In this document: positions 1 through 23,935 of the stretch, piece by piece
Position numbering within the stretch: position 1 is the stretch's first letter
Layout: each line of letters opens with the position of its first letter
Virus record (IMG/VR): IMGVR_UViG_2585427776_000011
DNA: 25,969 nucleotides
Source of the DNA: a virus
Lineage: Duplodnaviria; Heunggongvirae; Uroviricota; Caudoviricetes
Reading direction: 5' to 3' (one strand)
Translations under genes and position numbers: made by a program
Notes under the pieces: generated by a model
Databases searched by the model: none
Seen by the model: only the letters and a program-made list of their open reading frames with translations
Told to the model about the DNA's origin: nothing

Positions 1-1293
<1,293 letters not shown>

Positions 1294-9088: not shown

Positions 9089-9120
9089 AAAACCGCTAAT
9101 GGTCAGATTAGCGGTTTTTA
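9089..9120. terminator. bidirectional intrinsic terminator between U and invertase
   Basis: Perfect inverted repeat AAAACCGCTAAT-ggtcag-ATTAGCGGTTTT with T/A runs on both sides; overlaps the 3' end of the invertase ORF. Confidence 0.6.
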
Positions 9121-9707
9121 TTTTCCTGAGTCTGCCTGGTTGTTTCTTCAGCCTGTATATCGCCTGCAGGGTGATAACGATAAATCGTCGATATGCCGAT
9201 GTCGTAAATGATCGCCAGTTGTTTCCTGTCATGACCGTTTTTAATCAGCCTCGCTATTTGCTCGTGTTGTTCTTTTGTCAACTTCGGGCGACGTCCGCCA
9301 ATGCGTCCTTGTGCGCGTGCTGCTGCCAGCCCGGCCAGTGTACGCTCTACAATTAATTCACGTTCCATTTCGGCTAAAGCCCCCATGACGTGAAAAAAGA
9401 AACGCCCCATGGGTGTTGATGTGTCAATGCTGTCCGTCAGACTACGGAAATTAACACCTTTTTCCCGCAATTCCTCAATAAGCGTGATCAGGTGTTTCAT
9501 ACTTCTGCCCAGTCTGTCCAGCTTCCAGACAACCAGCGTATCTCCTTCTGATAGCGTTCTGAGCAGTTTTTTCAATCCCGGTCTGGCTGATTTCGTTCCG
9601 CTGATTTTATCTTCAAAAATCAGTTCACATCCTGCGCAGTTCAGTGCATTGCGTTGTAAATCCGTGTTCTGGTCATTTGTTGACACACGAATATAGCCAA
9701 TTTGCAT
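9108..9707 (-). CDS. Gin/Pin/Hin-family serine DNA invertase
   Basis: Translation from MQIGYIRVSTNDQ... (resolvase catalytic serine motif) with C-terminal HTH ...LAIIYDIGISTIYRY; start at ATG 9707 with RBS AGAGGA, not the 264-aa ORF start. Confidence 0.9.
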   Translation of the reverse strand: MQIGYIRVSTNDQNTDLQRNALNCAGCELIFEDKISGTKSARPGLKKLLRTLSEGDTLVVWKLDRLGRSMKHLITLIEELREKGVNFRSLTDSIDTSTPMGRFFFHVMGALAEMERELIVERTLAGLAAARAQGRIGGRRPKLTKEQHEQIARLIKNGHDRKQLAIIYDIGISTIYRYHPAGDIQAEETTRQTQENKNR

Positions 9708-9721
9708 AAAAAACATCCTCT

Positions 9722-10207
9722 TTGTTTCGTGAAAAATACAGAGTTGGTATAGGTAGGGATAAAAACGAAAACGTTGGTTTGGGGGAAGGCTCTGCACTGC
9801 CCGTTGGTGTGCCCGTTCCGTGGTCCTCAGCAACACCACCAACGGGCTGGCTGAAATGTAACGGTGCAGCATTTTCTTCTGAAATGTATCCCAGACTGGC
9901 AAGGGCTTATCCCACCAATAAATTACCGGATTTACGCGGTGAATTTATCCGTGGCTGGGATGATGGGCGCGGGATTGATGCGGGACGTACCCTGCTTTCA
10001 GGGCAGGATGGTACAAGTTTTTCTCATTACGGAGGTAATTTCGACATTGGGTCTGGTCATTCAATCAATAACTATGACCAAATTGTTTCTAACCAACCAG
10101 GCTTTTCCCGTTTTTCATTTGCAGGGCCTTCACGAGGTGATGGGGTTAATTATGTAACCATTCGTCCTCGTAATATTGCGTTTAATTACATCGTAAGGGC
10201 AGCATGA
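9722..10207 (+). CDS. tail-fibre C-terminal cassette 1 (tail-collar-like domain), no canonical start
   Basis: ORF opens at TTG; contains GWLKCNGAAFSSEMYP...LPDLRGEFIRGWDDGRG, the pattern of phage tail-collar domains; ends NYIVRAA. Confidence 0.5.
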   Translation: MFREKYRVGIGRDKNENVGLGEGSALPVGVPVPWSSATPPTGWLKCNGAAFSSEMYPRLARAYPTNKLPDLRGEFIRGWDDGRGIDAGRTLLSGQDGTSFSHYGGNFDIGSGHSINNYDQIVSNQPGFSRFSFAGPSRGDGVNYVTIRPRNIAFNYIVRAA

Positions 10208-10217
10208 AAACGTTGGT

Positions 10218-10685
10218 TTGGGGGAAGGCTCTGCGTTGCCCGTTGGCGTGCCCGTTCCATGGCCCTCAGCCACGCTGCCAACGGGGTGGCTGAAATGTAA
10301 CGGCGCAGCATTTTCTTCTGAAATGTACCCCAATCTGGCAAAGGCCTACCCCACCAATAAATTACCGGATTTACGGGGCGAATTTATTCGCGGCTGGGAT
10401 GACGGACGGGGCGTTGATAATGGGCGCAACCTACTGTCTGCACAGTCTGACGCTATTCAGAATATAGTTGGCACTTTTGGGCGTACTCAGCTTTTTAAAG
10501 ATGCGCTTAATTCAGGACCATTTAGTCAAACTGACTCTATATTATCAGTAGGCTTACAACCAACTGAGATCATTGAAGGATATGGTGCTTCTGTATGGAC
10601 ATTCGACGCCTCTCGCTCAGTTCGCACAGCATCTGAAACACGCCCCCATAACATTGCGTTTAATTACATCGTAAGGGCAGCATGA
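10218..10685 (+). CDS. tail-fibre C-terminal cassette 2, no ATG start
   Basis: Same conserved 5' and 3' ends as cassette 1 with a different central segment; frame opens just after the previous stop. Confidence 0.5.
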   Translation: MGEGSALPVGVPVPWPSATLPTGWLKCNGAAFSSEMYPNLAKAYPTNKLPDLRGEFIRGWDDGRGVDNGRNLLSAQSDAIQNIVGTFGRTQLFKDALNSGPFSQTDSILSVGLQPTEIIEGYGASVWTFDASRSVRTASETRPHNIAFNYIVRAA

Positions 10686-10695
10686 AAACGTTGGT

Positions 10696-11202
10696 TTGGG
10701 GGAAGGCTCTGCACTGCCCGTTGGTGTACCCGTTCCGTGGCCCTTAGAAACACTGCCAACGGGATGGCTGAAATGTAACGGTGCAGCATTTTCTTCTGAA
10801 ATGTATCCCAGACTGGCAAAGGCTTATCCCACCAATAAATTACCGGATTTACGCGGTGAATTTATCCGTGGTTGGGATGACGGACGTGGTGTGGATGCGG
10901 GGAGAACAATATTATCCGCTCAAGGTGATGCCATACGTAATATCTATGGTGAGTTCAAGACTGTAAACACCGAAAATTATTCAATATGGGAATCAGTAGG
11001 CTCATTTAAGGGGGCAGTGGTGCCTTTGAGTCCCTCAACGAACAATAGTTATTTCTCCTTCACCAGAAGTATGGTGACAGAAAGAACAGACGGCACTGTT
11101 TACCCAAAAGTGATAGGCCTTGATGCTTCAAGAATTGTTCCAACTGCAAACGAAAACCGTCCTCGTAACATTGCGTTTAATTACATCGTAAGGGCAGTAT
11201 GA
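10696..11202 (+). CDS. tail-fibre C-terminal cassette 3, no ATG start
   Basis: Same architecture as cassettes 1 and 2 with a third variable centre. Confidence 0.5.
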   Translation: MGEGSALPVGVPVPWPLETLPTGWLKCNGAAFSSEMYPRLAKAYPTNKLPDLRGEFIRGWDDGRGVDAGRTILSAQGDAIRNIYGEFKTVNTENYSIWESVGSFKGAVVPLSPSTNNSYFSFTRSMVTERTDGTVYPKVIGLDASRIVPTANENRPRNIAFNYIVRAV

Positions 11203-14907: not shown

Positions 14908-14934
14908 TTGTGCAAATTTGTGCACTATTGTGCA
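14908..14934 (+). promoter_or_regulatory. three helically phased TTGTGCA direct repeats upstream of the accessory operon
   Basis: TTGTGCA at 14908, 14918 and 14928 (10-bp period), with a fourth copy near 14837 and a CGGATCC direct repeat at about 14847-14866. Confidence 0.5.
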
Positions 14935-15013
14935 TTTGTATAGTGAAAAAAATATAGCAGAAAGTATACTTAGCGCCTTGTGGGCTACGTTAACTTTGCA
15001 GGAACATTTGGAA

Positions 15014-16393
15014 ATGAAAAAAATCAATAAAGAAGATTCTAAAAGAACCTTTTTACGTGGATGGTTGCGATTTCTTCGTAGCGTTGAGAGAGCTAAGAAA
15101 AAAAAGCCTGCGCAAGAGAAAAATGGTAGTCTTCGTTTTTCCGATGAAACAACTCCTGTCCAAAACCAAGTCGCTACGTTCATTGAAAATATATCGATTA
15201 TAAAAGAGTATGACTCATCAATTCTTCGTCGTGACGCAGAGAAGATATTAATACCTAAATATTTTGACTTATATGACAATCCAGAGAAATCTCTGCTATT
15301 TATTAGTGCAGCCACAAAATTAATTGCAAGAGGTAAATGGAAATCATATATTTTTGATTACAAGAAAAACAAAAAACACTGTCTTGGTCTTGAGTGTCTA
15401 TTAGGTGTTGCTCTTACAGCAGCAAGGCAAAGTAATATAAATTTCAAAGATACGATGATTCAGATTAATGGTATCTACCCTAAAGATGAACAGTATCTTG
15501 AAATTATCAGGGATGTCGGGCTTGTAAAAGAGATTAGTAATGCTGCACCAGGTAAAGTTCTGGACTCTACTGAAGCATCGAAAAAAGCGAATCCGAAGAA
15601 ACGAATCTTCTCTGCTGATAGTATCGGAAAGGAGAATGCTTCTGCCTTTGCCCATGACAGAAAAAATGTCACTGCTGAAAAATTTACCGCATACATAAAC
15701 GAATGCTTAAATGATCATAATTTAAAACTTGTACATGAGGCAGAAAAGCATTTAACTTCCTGCATGGGGGAACTCCTTGATAATGCGGAGCGGCATTGTG
15801 GGTTAGAGCAACGCCCACGCTGGTATTTGAGAGGTTTTGTTAATAATAACGTACGAAACCCCATATGTGAGTTGGCTGTTTTCAATTTTGGGAAAACTAT
15901 CAGCGAAACTTTTGATAATTTACCTGAGGATCATTTTTCATTAAGTCAACAAGTTAATCCATACATAAATAAGCATATTAAGAAAAAGGGTATGTTTAAG
16001 GAAGGATTAACAACAGTAGCGGCCTTGCAAGGGCGGGTGAGTTGTAAAAACGAGAAAGAAACTGACAGTTCTGGCACCGGAACAATTGAATTATTGAAGT
16101 TATTTCAAGATATGCATGATAATCTTAAAAAAATGGGAAGAGATATTAAAGGTGGGATAAAAATGACTTTAATATCTGGTAGTACTCATATTAACTTTGA
16201 TGGATCATATAAATTAAAGCAAAGGTTGGTTAATGACGAGGAAAGTGACATTTTTACTTACCCTTTTAATGATGTAGGGCTTGAATCTGAACCGGATCGC
16301 AACTATCTTAAGCGTATGAAGGATGCTCGATTTCCTGGAGTTATGATCAATATTCGTTTTCCTCTACCAGAAAACGCCACCCAGCGAACTTGA
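15014..16393 (+). CDS. hypothetical protein with GHKL-type ATPase / anti-sigma-factor serine-kinase-like motif (accessory operon gene 1)
   Basis: ATG 15014 with AGGA RBS; 459 aa, AT-rich codon usage; motif GELLDNAERHCG resembles the N-box (E..NA..H.G) of SpoIIAB/RsbW-type kinases and SSGTGTIELL a G2-like box. Function is inferred, not verified. Confidence 0.75.
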   Translation: MKKINKEDSKRTFLRGWLRFLRSVERAKKKKPAQEKNGSLRFSDETTPVQNQVATFIENISIIKEYDSSILRRDAEKILIPKYFDLYDNPEKSLLFISAATKLIARGKWKSYIFDYKKNKKHCLGLECLLGVALTAARQSNINFKDTMIQINGIYPKDEQYLEIIRDVGLVKEISNAAPGKVLDSTEASKKANPKKRIFSADSIGKENASAFAHDRKNVTAEKFTAYINECLNDHNLKLVHEAEKHLTSCMGELLDNAERHCGLEQRPRWYLRGFVNNNVRNPICELAVFNFGKTISETFDNLPEDHFSLSQQVNPYINKHIKKKGMFKEGLTTVAALQGRVSCKNEKETDSSGTGTIELLKLFQDMHDNLKKMGRDIKGGIKMTLISGSTHINFDGSYKLKQRLVNDEESDIFTYPFNDVGLESEPDRNYLKRMKDARFPGVMINIRFPLPENATQRT

Positions 16394-16403
16394 GGACAGG
16401 TAC

Positions 16404-16748
16404 ATGAAAATGGCTGACATCACCATAGATTTCAATAAGTTAGTAAAAGATAGTAACAAGAAACTTTTTGCTGGACGTTCTAATGGGCGCCAGGCCTATG
16501 ATTACTTTAATATAGGGAAATTTTGCACAACCAGTAATGATAGATTATATCTATTGATCCCCAAGGGAATTGTTGTATCAAGCTCATACTTTCTAGGTAT
16601 GCTTGAAACGGTTTTGCCGAAATTTTCTTCGCCTAGCGAATTTTATAGTCGCACTGTACTTGATGGTCGTGAATATAAAGAAGGTATGCTTTCTGAATTA
16701 GATAGAGCTGTAAGGAGAGGCTTACATAAAAATGTTCCCTTCTTTTAA
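16404..16748 (+). CDS. hypothetical small protein, STAS-like / DUF4325-like (accessory operon gene 2)
   Basis: 114 aa, RBS GAGGA; segment IVVSSSYFLGMLE resembles the serine-containing core of STAS-like domains recalled from memory; sits next to the kinase-like gene. Confidence 0.7.
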   Translation: MKMADITIDFNKLVKDSNKKLFAGRSNGRQAYDYFNIGKFCTTSNDRLYLLIPKGIVVSSSYFLGMLETVLPKFSSPSEFYSRTVLDGREYKEGMLSELDRAVRRGLHKNVPFF

Positions 16749-17541
16749 AAATATTTTTCAAATCAAAATGACAGCGCTGTCTGTCATTTTTTTTATATTC
16801 CCCGCAGCTTGCTCTGTGACAGATTTTTCCAATAAAGAAAACATTGAATGTAATGAGTCACTTTATCCAAACACGCCTTTTTATATTCCCGATTCAGGAC
16901 TTAGTGGTATATCATCACCGTTTTTGTTATCCGGAAACCCGAATGATGGCTTGATGTTTTGTGAAAAGGCAAACGACACCTTTCATAAGTTATCTCTGGC
17001 AAGGGATAACAAAAAAGATTTATTTGCTAATTATTTCAAAGATGTTCCAAATTCCTATGATATATATAATATTGTAAAGGTTCCGGAAAATGGTCCAGAG
17101 TGGATTTCTATTGGCATCTCTTTATTTGCTTTAGTTTCATCCTTTGTTATTCCTTGTGTTCAACATAGAAAAGAACGTAAAGAAGCTATTAATGAAGGGT
17201 ATTGGGTAAGAGAAGTAATTATGCCTAAAATTAATGGGTTGGCATTCGATGTTGTGCAAAGTTTTAAAAACTCCATGGCATTATCAGAAGAGGAGTTTCT
17301 TAGTGTATTCAGTAATACTCTTTTACCAAAACTAGGAGAGTTACGGGATTCATTATATTTGTTTAATAGTTTTCCAGAATTAAATGCAGATATTGAAAAT
17401 CTAGAAAGTATTTGTGACTCCTTGGAGGAAGAAGTTTCCAATCATATAGACTCGCCTAATGAAATAAGAATTTCTGATATATCAATGTTTCATTCCAAAT
17501 TAATACAGAAATTAATTTTACTTCATAAGAAGATAGGTTGA
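16732..17541 (+). CDS. hypothetical membrane protein (accessory operon gene 3)
   Basis: 269 aa; N-terminal hydrophobic signal-like segment MTALSVIFFIFPAAC (lipobox-like Cys) and an internal hydrophobic helix WISIGISLFALVSSFVIPCV; overlaps the end of gene 2. Confidence 0.7.
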   Translation: MFPSFKNIFQIKMTALSVIFFIFPAACSVTDFSNKENIECNESLYPNTPFYIPDSGLSGISSPFLLSGNPNDGLMFCEKANDTFHKLSLARDNKKDLFANYFKDVPNSYDIYNIVKVPENGPEWISIGISLFALVSSFVIPCVQHRKERKEAINEGYWVREVIMPKINGLAFDVVQSFKNSMALSEEEFLSVFSNTLLPKLGELRDSLYLFNSFPELNADIENLESICDSLEEEVSNHIDSPNEIRISDISMFHSKLIQKLILLHKKIG

Positions 17542-20763: not shown

Positions 20764-20994
20764 TTAATGGAGTTTGTTTTGCTGCTGGATGAGCTGTTGA
20801 AGCTCGTGCAGATCATCCGCCAGATAGCTGAAAACAGAGGCGGAATAAATGTTTGATAGTGCGTGGCTGCGCTCATGCAGCATATTGATGTGCATGATTT
20901 GCGCGACGCGTGATGCGCGGGAAAGTCTGCGGTTGATTTCAGTCTGGATGTGACGACGCTCCGCGATAGCGCGGTGTGGTTTGCGGTTTGCCAT
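20764..20994 (-). CDS. hypothetical phage protein
   Basis: 76-aa ORF with RBS AAGGGG 7 nt before ATG 20994. Confidence 0.6.
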   Translation of the reverse strand: MANRKPHRAIAERRHIQTEINRRLSRASRVAQIMHINMLHERSHALSNIYSASVFSYLADDLHELQQLIQQQNKLH

Positions 20995-21171
20995 GGTGTG
21001 GCCCCTTGTGTAGTAAGTTGTGAAAACTCACCATCCAGAGCTGCGAAACTGTGGGTGGCGAGACGTACGAGGTTCGCAGTACCGGCTACACAAGAACCCG
21101 GCCCGACCGAAGTCGGCCCCGTACGCCCCGCCATAATTCTGACGCGAAAAAAACGTGGCAATACAGTACGC

Positions 21172-21196
21172 ACAAAAAAACCGCTGGCGCGGTTGT
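21172..21196 (-). terminator. intrinsic terminator on minus strand inside the early operon
   Basis: On the minus strand AACCGC-gcca-GCGGTT is followed by TTTTTTTGTG. Confidence 0.5.
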
Positions 21197-21316
21197 GCGC
21201 TTGTGTAGTCAGCAGGCTGCGAAACCCGACACCCGTTTTGTGAGGTGCAGCGGAAATGTAACCTGACTGATTGCGGCATGGCAAGCGGTTTTTTTGTGTG
21301 TGCATGTTCTGGTTTC

Positions 21317-22079: not shown

Positions 22080-22165
22080 TACGCCTCCTTGGCGTGTGCG
22101 AATACCTCCGCTAATGCGGATTGTTTTTACATTTTCTTATTTAATCTGTGGTTTTATTTGCTCTG

Positions 22166-22279
22166 TTATTCGCCAGTGAAAAAGCGTTCAATCTTTTTTA
22201 TTGAATGAATAATTCGCATAATCCCAATAGCGCAGGCCACCGAAATAATCAGAACAAGCCATGAGATAAATATACTCAT
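22166..22279 (-). CDS. 37-aa hydrophobic single-helix peptide (not in ORF track)
   Basis: Hand translation of minus strand gives MSIFISWLVLIISVACAIGIMRIIHSIKKIERFFTGE; its ATG overlaps the stop of the upstream gene (ATGA); RBS-like GGGGAA upstream. Confidence 0.35.
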   Translation of the reverse strand: MSIFISWLVLIISVACAIGIMRIIHSIKKIERFFTGE

Positions 22280-22518
22280 GCGATATTCCCCAGCTTATAC
22301 GGTTCAATATGTTCCCCGCATTCTGCGGCACAGATTAGCTCGGAAAGTTCGTTAAGTGCATCCAGATCATCAGCGTAAAAAGCCACGTCATACAGACTTC
22401 GGATTGCTCTGGTCAATGAGTCACGGGCCGCACGTTCAGCATGAGCGCCTGATGCACTTAAGCGAAAATAAAAACGCTCAAGTGCTTTGTTAATGAGAGT
22501 TTTATATTCTTTGCCCAT
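22276..22518 (-). CDS. hypothetical phage protein
   Basis: 80-aa ORF from ATG 22518 (ORF track starts one codon earlier at GTG); RBS AAGGA. Confidence 0.55.
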   Translation of the reverse strand: MGKEYKTLINKALERFYFRLSASGAHAERAARDSLTRAIRSLYDVAFYADDLDALNELSELICAAECGEHIEPYKLGNIA

Positions 22519-23178: not shown

Positions 23179-23314
23179 ATTAAAACTCTGTACCTTCGGT
23201 AAGGTGTACTCGTGTCACCTTGTATTGATTTGTGGTATTTTTTTGTGTGTCTAGGACTTGGACTGGCCGGTTCAGGTCCTGGCTTATGTTTAATTAAATT
23301 GTTAAGGGGTTTTC

Positions 23315-23506
23315 ATGTCAGAAGATAAAAAAGTTGTTAATTTGTTGAGTGAACTTAGTGCTGCTCTGGATAACATTAACCCTCCCAGGGTAAAAACGAC
23401 GGGTGATAAAGACGCATTAAACGCAGAGATTCATATATTACTGGCGTTAGTAACTGACAAAATTCAGCGTAAATACCCACCTGTCACACAACTGGTTGAT
23501 TTTTAA
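23315..23506 (+). CDS. hypothetical small protein (AT-rich accessory gene)
   Basis: 63-aa ORF with RBS AAGGGG; the only plus-strand gene in the early region; convergent with the next gene. Confidence 0.5.
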   Translation: MSEDKKVVNLLSELSAALDNINPPRVKTTGDKDALNAEIHILLALVTDKIQRKYPPVTQLVDF

Positions 23507-23512
23507 TTTGAT

Positions 23513-23935
23513 TTATGCCGGGCTGCTCCCGGCATCTTCTAGCTGCCATAATGTCTCGTCACCTGATAGAGCAAAACGAAATGAGTGAAGTATATCCTCC
23601 CGAGAGAAGCTCACGGCTACAGCTGCGGGAAAGTCAAATATAATCCCACCTTCATTTTTAAAACGATTACGCAATTGATAGGCTATCGGTTTGATTTGTG
23701 CAGGAAGAGTATCTATATCTCTTCCATTGACAACAGAATCTTTGTTTTCAAGTACTGATTTAGCGATTAGATATAGATGCCAGTAACTGGTTACAATTGT
23801 TACTCCTGTGATGTGTCGTAAATTAATTGCAATTCGTCCGTTATTATGTTTTTCCGCAAGGTATTTCAGGTTATCAATTAATGGTTGGTCATTTTTTGAA
23901 ATAGTTATTGTGAAATCTGGCGTGTTTGTTTTCAT
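23513..23935 (-). CDS. hypothetical protein (AT-rich accessory gene)
   Basis: Start at internal ATG 23935 (MKTNTPDF...) with GAGG RBS, 140 aa; the longer 221-aa ORF would overlap the upstream gene; visibly AT-rich. Confidence 0.55.
   Translation of the reverse strand: MKTNTPDFTITISKNDQPLIDNLKYLAEKHNNGRIAINLRHITGVTIVTSYWHLYLIAKSVLENKDSVVNGRDIDTLPAQIKPIAYQLRNRFKNEGGIIFDFPAAVAVSFSREDILHSFRFALSGDETLWQLEDAGSSPA

Follow-up and report, generated by a model that had tools for sequence, protein, structure and literature searches.

Does a reading frame of only 37 codons, lying between a DUF4754 gene and a short spacer in the early region of a P2-like prophage, encode a genuine protein, and what would such a protein do? 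The window, i.e. the whole stretch of DNA that was analysed (25,969 nt), contains a P2-family prophage of the P88/Xuanwuvirus type that adjoins the host serS gene. The frame occupies positions 22166..22279 of the minus strand, stop codon included; it opens with an ATG, closes with a TAA (22168..22166) and specifies the 37-aa sequence MSIFISWLVLIISVACAIGIMRIIHSIKKIERFFTGE. Reading the sequence again reproduced exactly the minus-strand coordinates and the peptide given in a preliminary description of this DNA.

That description also presented the peptide as unannotated, which turned out to be true of the ORF track only, since RefSeq, GenBank, the P88 record and UniRef all carry it. An identical protein exists in RefSeq (WP_000021652.1, ‘hypothetical protein’, MULTISPECIES Enterobacteriaceae), and gp07 of phage P88 (SF19_gp07, YP_009113050.1), labelled ‘membrane protein’, is 97% identical to it (I27V). 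By tblastn, the identity with P88, P884B11 and PhiSM is 97-100%, and the relatives H1 and H11 have an annotated protein that is 100% identical. UniRef uses the label ‘Prophage membrane protein’; there, a 90% cluster with 183 members contains the exact sequence, which was seen on about a thousand contigs. The gene is not new: catalogues already have it, as a hypothetical or as a membrane protein. It is also widespread: the surrounding 1.3 kb were found in 1369 of 5426 complete E. coli genomes (about 25%).

The only family of which the peptide is a full member is its own, P88 gp07, with which it shares full-length identity, the position just after DUF4754 in the cox-to-gpA operon and the same 4-nt overlap, and which is represented by annotation records only. 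Beyond that family, the peptide and four diverged homologues gave nothing above noise in Pfam, PHROGs, NCBIfam, PADLOC or a PDB sequence search, and no mention of the peptide, its accessions, its sequence or DUF4754 was found in the literature.

Overlap with DUF4754 and selection on the reading frame

The upstream gene (22276..22518, minus strand) codes for 80 aa from its ATG, matches DUF4754 (Pfam PF15946, E = 2.9e-54) and terminates with a TGA at 22278..22276. Four bases, ATGA (22276..22279, minus strand; context ...ATCGC-ATGA-GTATA), are therefore common to its stop codon and to the start codon of the peptide. A purine run, GGGGAA (22286..22291, minus strand), is found 8 nt upstream of the peptide ATG, within the 3' end of DUF4754; it could be the Shine-Dalgarno (SD) site of the peptide gene. 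The overlap with the stop of the 80-aa gene had already been pointed out in the preliminary description, and both it and the SD-like run are kept in diverged relatives. Two of these, the prophage loci L196 and L197, have GAAGGGGA and GAGGAG 4-5 nt 5' of the ATG, in spite of the different DUF4754 C-termini that these sequences also encode. From the ATGA overlap, and from it only, we infer that translation of the peptide may be coupled to that of DUF4754. Overlaps of 4 nt are the rule in the early operon, being present also in the 67-aa/MarR and MarR/Ead gene pairs, and because they recur in this way the overlap alone does not imply a specific partnership between the peptide and DUF4754. An alternative ORF of 47 aa beginning with GTG and running across both genes (22188..22331, minus strand) was considered and rejected: it is off-frame, and the two off-frames do not behave as coding sequence (see pN/pS values below).

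To follow the frame across related prophages, a check that the preliminary description had proposed, 195 related loci were fetched from IMG/VR and from species-representative genomes; some contigs are present twice, and the set contains 111 distinct downstream sequences. In all loci but one, which is truncated, an ORF starts at an ATG (once at a GTG) overlapping the DUF4754 stop codon, the overlap motif being ATGA (once GTGA). The full-length peptide (37 or 41 aa) is present in 181 of the 195 loci, representing about 110 distinct sequences, all from a narrow and freely recombining group of enterobacterial P2-like prophages, and its conservation is partly a matter of recent common descent. The others have altered tails (about 7% of the loci): a 45-aa variant with a frameshifted tail in 11 of the 195, and a 30-aa truncation in 3. 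A phmmer search of 1.84 billion representative proteins returned 8 clusters only, including 41-aa forms that are 57-68% identical. The four clusters that were checked (P0080, P0082, P0084 and the window's own type) are peptides of 37-41 aa in the same context; the remaining four are close, tail-frameshifted or truncated variants. P0084 and P0082 come from the diverged P2-like prophages L196 and L197, the latter adjoining E. coli glsA; in both, the order is DUF4761, an 80-aa DUF4754-like gene, then the peptide with its 4-nt overlap.

The pattern of substitution is that of a protein-coding gene. Among 59 distinct 37-codon alleles the pN/pS ratio (Nei-Gojobori) is 0.27 in the peptide frame against 1.34 and 1.07 in the other two; purifying selection acts in the peptide frame only. 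In paired haplotypes DUF4754 has a ratio of 0.20 and the peptide one of 0.31, with 0.21 in its transmembrane part and 0.38 in its tail. When the window is compared to L196 and L197, 39-41 of 111 nucleotides differ (35-37% divergence), and the differences at codon positions 1/2/3 number 12/7/22 and 11/6/22, respectively; this third-position bias is the signature of a translated sequence. Identity in the same comparisons is 57-59% for the peptide, 32-41% for DUF4754 and 25-31% for the next gene (DUF4754/peptide/next small gene: 41/57/31% and 32/59/25%); on either side of this block, DUF4761 (81/72%) and the derepression protein (83/75%) remain similar. The frame is thus kept in about 110 distinct loci with substitutions biased towards third positions, and we consider it very probable that it encodes a real, translated membrane protein.

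A few oddities were revealed by the set of loci. A run of T5-6 in codons 32-34 (...CG(C/T)TTTTT(T)C..., 22178..22186) is one base shorter in 11 of the 195 loci, belonging to several diverged lineages (e.g. L160, L161, L072 and L095), which converts the FFTGE end into the 45-aa form ending ...RFSL(A/V/M/T)NN... The shortening could reflect recurrent slippage, real alleles or homopolymer sequencing errors; likewise, the tail-altered copies mean either that the last residues are dispensable, or that these copies are decaying, or that they contain sequencing errors. Another oddity is the mosaic DUF4754 gene of L195 (1501..1853), which keeps the common type in its first 14 and last 10 residues and has its central ~50 residues replaced (44% identity); to judge by its sequence, this gene has recombination breakpoints inside DUF4754. 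The peptide downstream of it is of the common type.

A hydrophobic helix with a basic tail

The peptide can be divided into two parts, a hydrophobic transmembrane core (codons 3-21, IFISWLVLIISVACAIGIM; 22217..22273, minus strand), seen in the Kyte-Doolittle profile and in the AlphaFold2 (AF2) helix, and a basic amphipathic juxtamembrane tail (codons 22-37, RIIHSIKKIERFFTGE; 22169..22216, minus strand), seen in the helical moment and in column conservation. The top 19-residue Kyte-Doolittle window, residues 3-21, has a mean of 2.68, well over the 1.6 that is usually taken as the threshold for a membrane helix, and the peptide ranks second in hydrophobicity among the 106 ATG-started ORFs of 25-60 aa within the window. 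AlphaFold2 predicts one continuous helix from residue 2 to residue 34 (pLDDT 92). The core is uniformly hydrophobic, with no polar face (helical moment 0.14, mean hydrophobicity 0.89), and residues 22-34 are strongly amphipathic (helical hydrophobic moment 0.80). No charged residue precedes R22; from there on, R22, K28, K29 and R32, plus H25, stand against E31 and E37, so that the tail is net basic, and the 41-aa homologues have an extra C-terminal KRRK or KHHK that makes it more positive. The single transmembrane helix and basic C-terminus of the preliminary description are thereby borne out.

Because no charge precedes R22 and the tail is net positive, the positive-inside rule probably gives an N-out/C-in topology in the inner membrane, with a periplasmic N-terminus of two residues and a cytoplasmic tail; the extra KRRK or KHHK reinforces this orientation.

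Per-column conservation singles out M1, S6, W7, G19, I23, I24, K28 and I30 as invariant, and F4, L10, I11, E31 (E/D) and F34 (F/Y) as nearly so. Core positions 13 and 17 are mostly small (S or A at 13; A, rarely T or V, at 17), and the tail conserves the motif K28-x-I30-E31-x-[FL]-F34-T-G-[ED]. Since invariant residues are found in both the helix and the tail, and since the peptide is more conserved than its neighbours, it would make specific contacts rather than act as a generic anchor. The conserved transmembrane and tail residues are, as far as sequence can tell, compatible with binding to a partner.

The early operon and its surroundings

Read along the minus strand, the window has first the integrase and C-type repressor genes, which are encoded by the opposite strand, then cox, a variable insert, DUF4761, a 95-aa ORF, DUF4754 and the peptide. 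An 86-nt spacer separates the peptide gene from a 67-aa ORF, after which come MarR-like and Ead/Ea22-like genes, the isrK and C4 RNAs, the gene of a 76-aa ‘derepression’ protein, an ORF of 121 aa and gpA, the replication endonuclease. This order agrees with that of the RefSeq-annotated copies and of phage P88, and its counterpart in P2 and 186 is the early (Pe/pR) operon (int, C, cox ... A). The placement in an early operon made by the preliminary description fits this cox-to-gpA synteny with P2, 186 and P88; the ‘early operon’ label and the timing of expression that it implies are, by synteny only, a fair assignment. No promoter-like site was found in a scan just upstream of the peptide gene.

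The spacer that follows the gene (22080..22165) contains a hairpin with a 5-bp stem and a 4-nt loop, TCCGC-ATTA-GCGGA (22107..22120, minus strand). Each of the 84 distinct downstream sequences, L196 and L197 included, has a readable stem-loop; our tabulation gave 82 of 84, the other two (TCCGC-ATTA-GCGGA and TCCGC-ACTC-GCGGA) having missed the search pattern only in the flank. It varies by two compensatory C-G to T-A changes, by G-U wobbles and by a loop that changes freely, and it accompanies the peptide gene whichever of three different genes lies downstream. On the plus strand, the scan found it terminator-like, a hairpin followed by TTGTTTTTAC. It could serve RNA processing or stability, or act as a weak or antisense terminator; other possibilities are a palindrome to which a protein binds and a sequence conserved at module junctions.

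The position of the gene invites comparison with early genes of two relatives, fil and dhr in 186 and orf78 and B in P2, which lie in the same stretch of the operon, directly 3' of cox/apl and 5' of a hairpin or terminator that sets this first part of the operon off from the remainder. Record annotations attribute a block of cell division to Fil of 186 and a block of host DNA replication to Dhr. The peptide gene is the last before its hairpin, as dhr is before tR1 in 186 and B before a putative terminator in P2, an analogy of position only: the fil, dhr, orf78 and B products are not hydrophobic (top Kyte-Doolittle windows of 0.17-1.26) and have no homology to the peptide. No transmembrane micro-ORF exists anywhere in the early operons of P2 or 186; the peptide is therefore a lineage-specific addition. 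The same narrowness applies to its neighbour. A DUF4754 profile run against one genome per species gave only 2 loci, in E. albertii and in a likely contaminated ‘Vagococcus’ assembly, and a homology search seeded with the diverged DUF4754-like protein of L197 gave only the self match; both results confine the module to a few enterobacterial P2-like phages.

Other features of the prophage were recorded on the way. The variable insert between cox and DUF4761 (23315..23935) carries a 140-aa ORF (23513..23935, minus strand) and a 63-aa ORF (23315..23506, plus strand), neither of which has a family match; it is missing from phage P88 and looks like a moron. A hairpin with a 14-bp stem lies beside it (23251..23282). 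Rfam reports, above the gathering score, a C4 antisense RNA (83 bits; 21051..21138, minus strand) and an isrK Hfq-binding RNA (62 bits; 21174..21248, minus strand). They are on the operon strand, about 1 kb from the peptide gene, between the Ead-like gene and the 76-aa ORF (20764..20994, minus strand), whose homologues belong to the Pfam family ‘Derepression’ (PF25738) and are labelled ‘derepression protein’ in P88; this arrangement suggests an RNA control of an antirepressor, of the P1/P4/Gifsy type, within the early operon of a P2-like phage. Between the portal gene and gpA, at the position of the P2 old/tin cargo hotspot, are three plus-strand ORFs (491, 114 and 269 aa; 14918..17541) without Pfam or PADLOC match and with one weak match to a PHROG whose function is unknown; at the old/tin-type site H1, which is the closest E. 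coli relative, has ParM and a partition gene instead. The three ORFs are possible accessory or defence cargo. The segment 9108..11202 is a Gin/Cin-like invertible host-range segment, made of a resolvase/invertase gene (9108..9902, minus strand) and of three tandem ORFs (9722..11202, plus strand), each of which matches only the C-terminal part of a tail fibre. These tail-fibre cassettes abut the terminase gene, only about 23 kb separate serS (1..1293) from int, and no capsid, lysis or baseplate ORF was seen among the window ORFs of at least 110 aa; the prophage looks rearranged or partly deleted.

Candidate roles of the peptide

The reading that we lean towards, with confidence only a little better than even, is that of a single-pass inner-membrane modulator of P88-like phages, active early in lytic growth on a host membrane protein and/or on DUF4754. 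The peptide would be transcribed with the early lytic operon (cox ... DUF4761, 95-aa ORF, DUF4754, peptide ... gpA) and translated, probably from the SD-like site inside the end of DUF4754; residues 3-21 would cross the membrane, leaving the tail (22-37) on its cytoplasmic face. Devoid of catalytic capacity, it would bind and modulate a larger membrane protein early in lytic growth. The contact surface would be formed by S6-W7, the small residues at 13, 17 and 19 and the tail motif K-x-I-E-x-[FL]-F-T-G-[ED], and the target would be a host inner-membrane protein (e.g. of the division or envelope-synthesis machinery) and/or the DUF4754 protein. That it acts by binding and modulating a partner, and not by forming a pore, we hold to be slightly favoured. 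For proteins of this kind, two modes of action are established, modulation of a larger membrane protein by binding to it and damage to the membrane. Modulation is preferred to membrane damage because the helix has no polar face, because there is neither an antisense RNA nor a separate promoter and because a lethal early product would harm the phage.

The working model is provided by the small single-pass bacterial membrane modulators AcrZ, MgtS, MgrB, CydX, KdpF and Blr (reviewed in PMC12648545). Like the peptide, modulators of the AcrZ/MgtS/MgrB type are shorter than 50 aa, cross the membrane with one helix, end in a short charged tail and lack a catalytic domain; their action presumably relies on helix-helix or tail contacts. 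They constitute a working class, not a homology family, which the peptide fits by its length (<50 aa), its one helix and its lack of an enzymatic domain. The differences are that they are encoded by chromosomal, stress-regulated genes whereas the peptide belongs to a polycistronic phage early operon, and that there is no sequence similarity.

Three of the rival explanations also have the frame encode a membrane protein. One is that the peptide serves DUF4754 as membrane tether or subunit: the two co-translated products would form a complex, the cytoplasmic tail of the peptide recruiting DUF4754 to the inner membrane, where both would act together, and the peptide would have no host target of its own. 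The DUF4754 protein is predicted to be soluble and all-helical (AF2 model with pLDDT 88.8; helices 4-48 and 52-66), the two genes lie side by side and overlap by 4 nt at all the loci found (L196 and L197 among them), DUF4754, the peptide and the next small gene diverge as a block between flanks that stay similar, and the tail motif is strongly conserved. On the other hand, ATGA overlaps are too common in the operon to be specific of this pair, the replacement of the DUF4754 centre in L195 next to a peptide of the common type argues against tight co-evolution, and the DUF4754 model shows no obvious peptide-binding fold or informative structural neighbour: against the PDB it gave only insignificant helical-bundle matches (best E = 1.7) and no functional lead. 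We regard a tether without host target as doubtful, if still worth keeping in mind. Proteins of 103-128 aa listed as ‘DUF4754’ were considered as possible fusions to the peptide, of the Rosetta-stone kind, and rejected: they are frameshifted reads, continuing mostly in another frame (HEYIYLMACSDYFGG...), and are mostly single sequences or small clusters from raw-read assemblies. A peptide similar to type I toxins or holins, which would oligomerise in the inner membrane, dissipate the proton-motive force and arrest or kill the host, is suggested by the resemblance in length, single hydrophobic helix and inner-membrane location to Hok/Gef, Ldr, TisB, Ibs, ShoB, DinQ and ZorO, by a basic end like that of Hok, Ldr, TisB, DinQ and ZorO-type toxins, and by the small residues S13, A17 and G19, which could pack helix against helix. 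Reviews in this field are PMC8309996 and PMC12648545. The core lacks the polar or charged face of the pore formers TisB and DinQ, however, and the genetic setting is not that of a type I toxin, with its own transcription unit and structured 5' UTR: the start is embedded in the upstream gene, where the SD-like run also lies. At the gathering threshold, Rfam reports only C4 and isrK, both on the operon strand, and no antitoxin RNA, although an undescribed one may exist; no plus-strand promoter-like site was found in the scan across the gene (22100-22300). The peptide matches no type I toxin family (Hok/Gef, Ldr, TisB, Ibs and others) in Pfam, NCBIfam or PADLOC, and no Pfam toxin family even at E <= 10. 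A holin or antiholin gene would be expected under late transcription in the lysis cassette, beside endolysin and spanin genes; this one sits between cox and gpA with the lysis genes far away. A strongly lethal product at this stage would also work against the phage, whose replication and late gene expression still depend on an energised host. Such a membrane-damaging role is improbable.

Superinfection exclusion or defence in the lysogen, with the peptide blocking the entry of other phages' DNA at the inner membrane in the manner of HK97 gp15 or T4 Imm/Sp, would agree with a role that is frequent among small inner-membrane phage proteins, with the presence of the gene in about a quarter of complete E. 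coli genomes and with its survival in the short, apparently rearranged prophage of the window. It is very improbable in view of the operon position, which argues for repression in lysogens: the cox-to-gpA operon is shut off by the immunity repressor in those of P2 and 186 (record annotations), no convincing internal promoter came out of the scan, no PADLOC model matches, and the known lysogenic-conversion genes of P2-like phages are separate transcription units at other sites. The last reading denies that the frame is a functional protein and explains it by chance, by linkage to DUF4754 or as a nucleic-acid element, i.e. a leader ORF regulating the hairpin and the downstream gene. The ORF is indeed short, it is followed by a conserved hairpin and, in the MFE fold, its stop-codon region pairs with sequence just 3' of the hairpin (z = -3.7). 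This pairing is not maintained, the variants GGCATTCAC and GACGAATAA showing no compensation, which led us to reject the leader-peptide or attenuator idea; the hairpin is kept in front of three different downstream genes, third positions change most with a pN/pS of about 0.3 in the peptide frame only, and, with 35-37% of the nucleotides changed and 57-59% amino acid identity, both the hydrophobic profile and the tail motif are still there. The substitution evidence already largely refutes the non-protein reading, which we find hardly credible.

Returning to a modulator that binds a partner, the proposal that this partner is a host protein and the effect a form of host takeover, such as a block of division or of envelope synthesis, is a more tentative one, possible but below even chance. 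Precedents are found in Gram-positive hosts. Gp56 of the B. subtilis phage SP01 is reportedly a small membrane early protein that blocks division and binds FtsL. Gp11, a small early membrane protein of the staphylococcal phage PhiNM1, blocks division and has MurG and DivIC as its binding partners (PMC11237401). Both are small, membrane-anchored products of early phage genes that act by binding host membrane proteins (MurG/DivIC in S. aureus, FtsL for gp56), as is proposed here for the peptide; they differ from it by their hosts and have no homology to it. Host killing or division inhibition, which the preliminary description suggested, is plausible for the peptide by analogy but would be speculation. 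In its most specific form, which we put forward as an unlikely but attractive conjecture, the peptide, alone or with DUF4754, would be a host-takeover effector of Xuanwuvirus-type phages, acting on an essential inner-membrane machine of E. coli (divisome, lipid II synthesis or FtsH) and docking on it via the invariant S6-W7 ... G19 face of the helix and the K-x-I-E-x-F-F-T-G-E tail.

Taken as it stands, the peptide is one more phage early gene already listed in databases, and the current understanding is unchanged. Small membrane proteins often go unnoticed or remain ‘hypothetical’; this one is under clear purifying selection, and no family has been described for it. Should it prove to bind a target in the host membrane, it would be a natural inhibitor of compact size; experiment is made easy by the fact that P88 and PhiSM plaque on laboratory E. 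coli. Were the effector conjecture true, about a quarter of the sequenced E. coli strains would carry, in this peptide of 37 aa, a new inhibitor of a defined target of the species.
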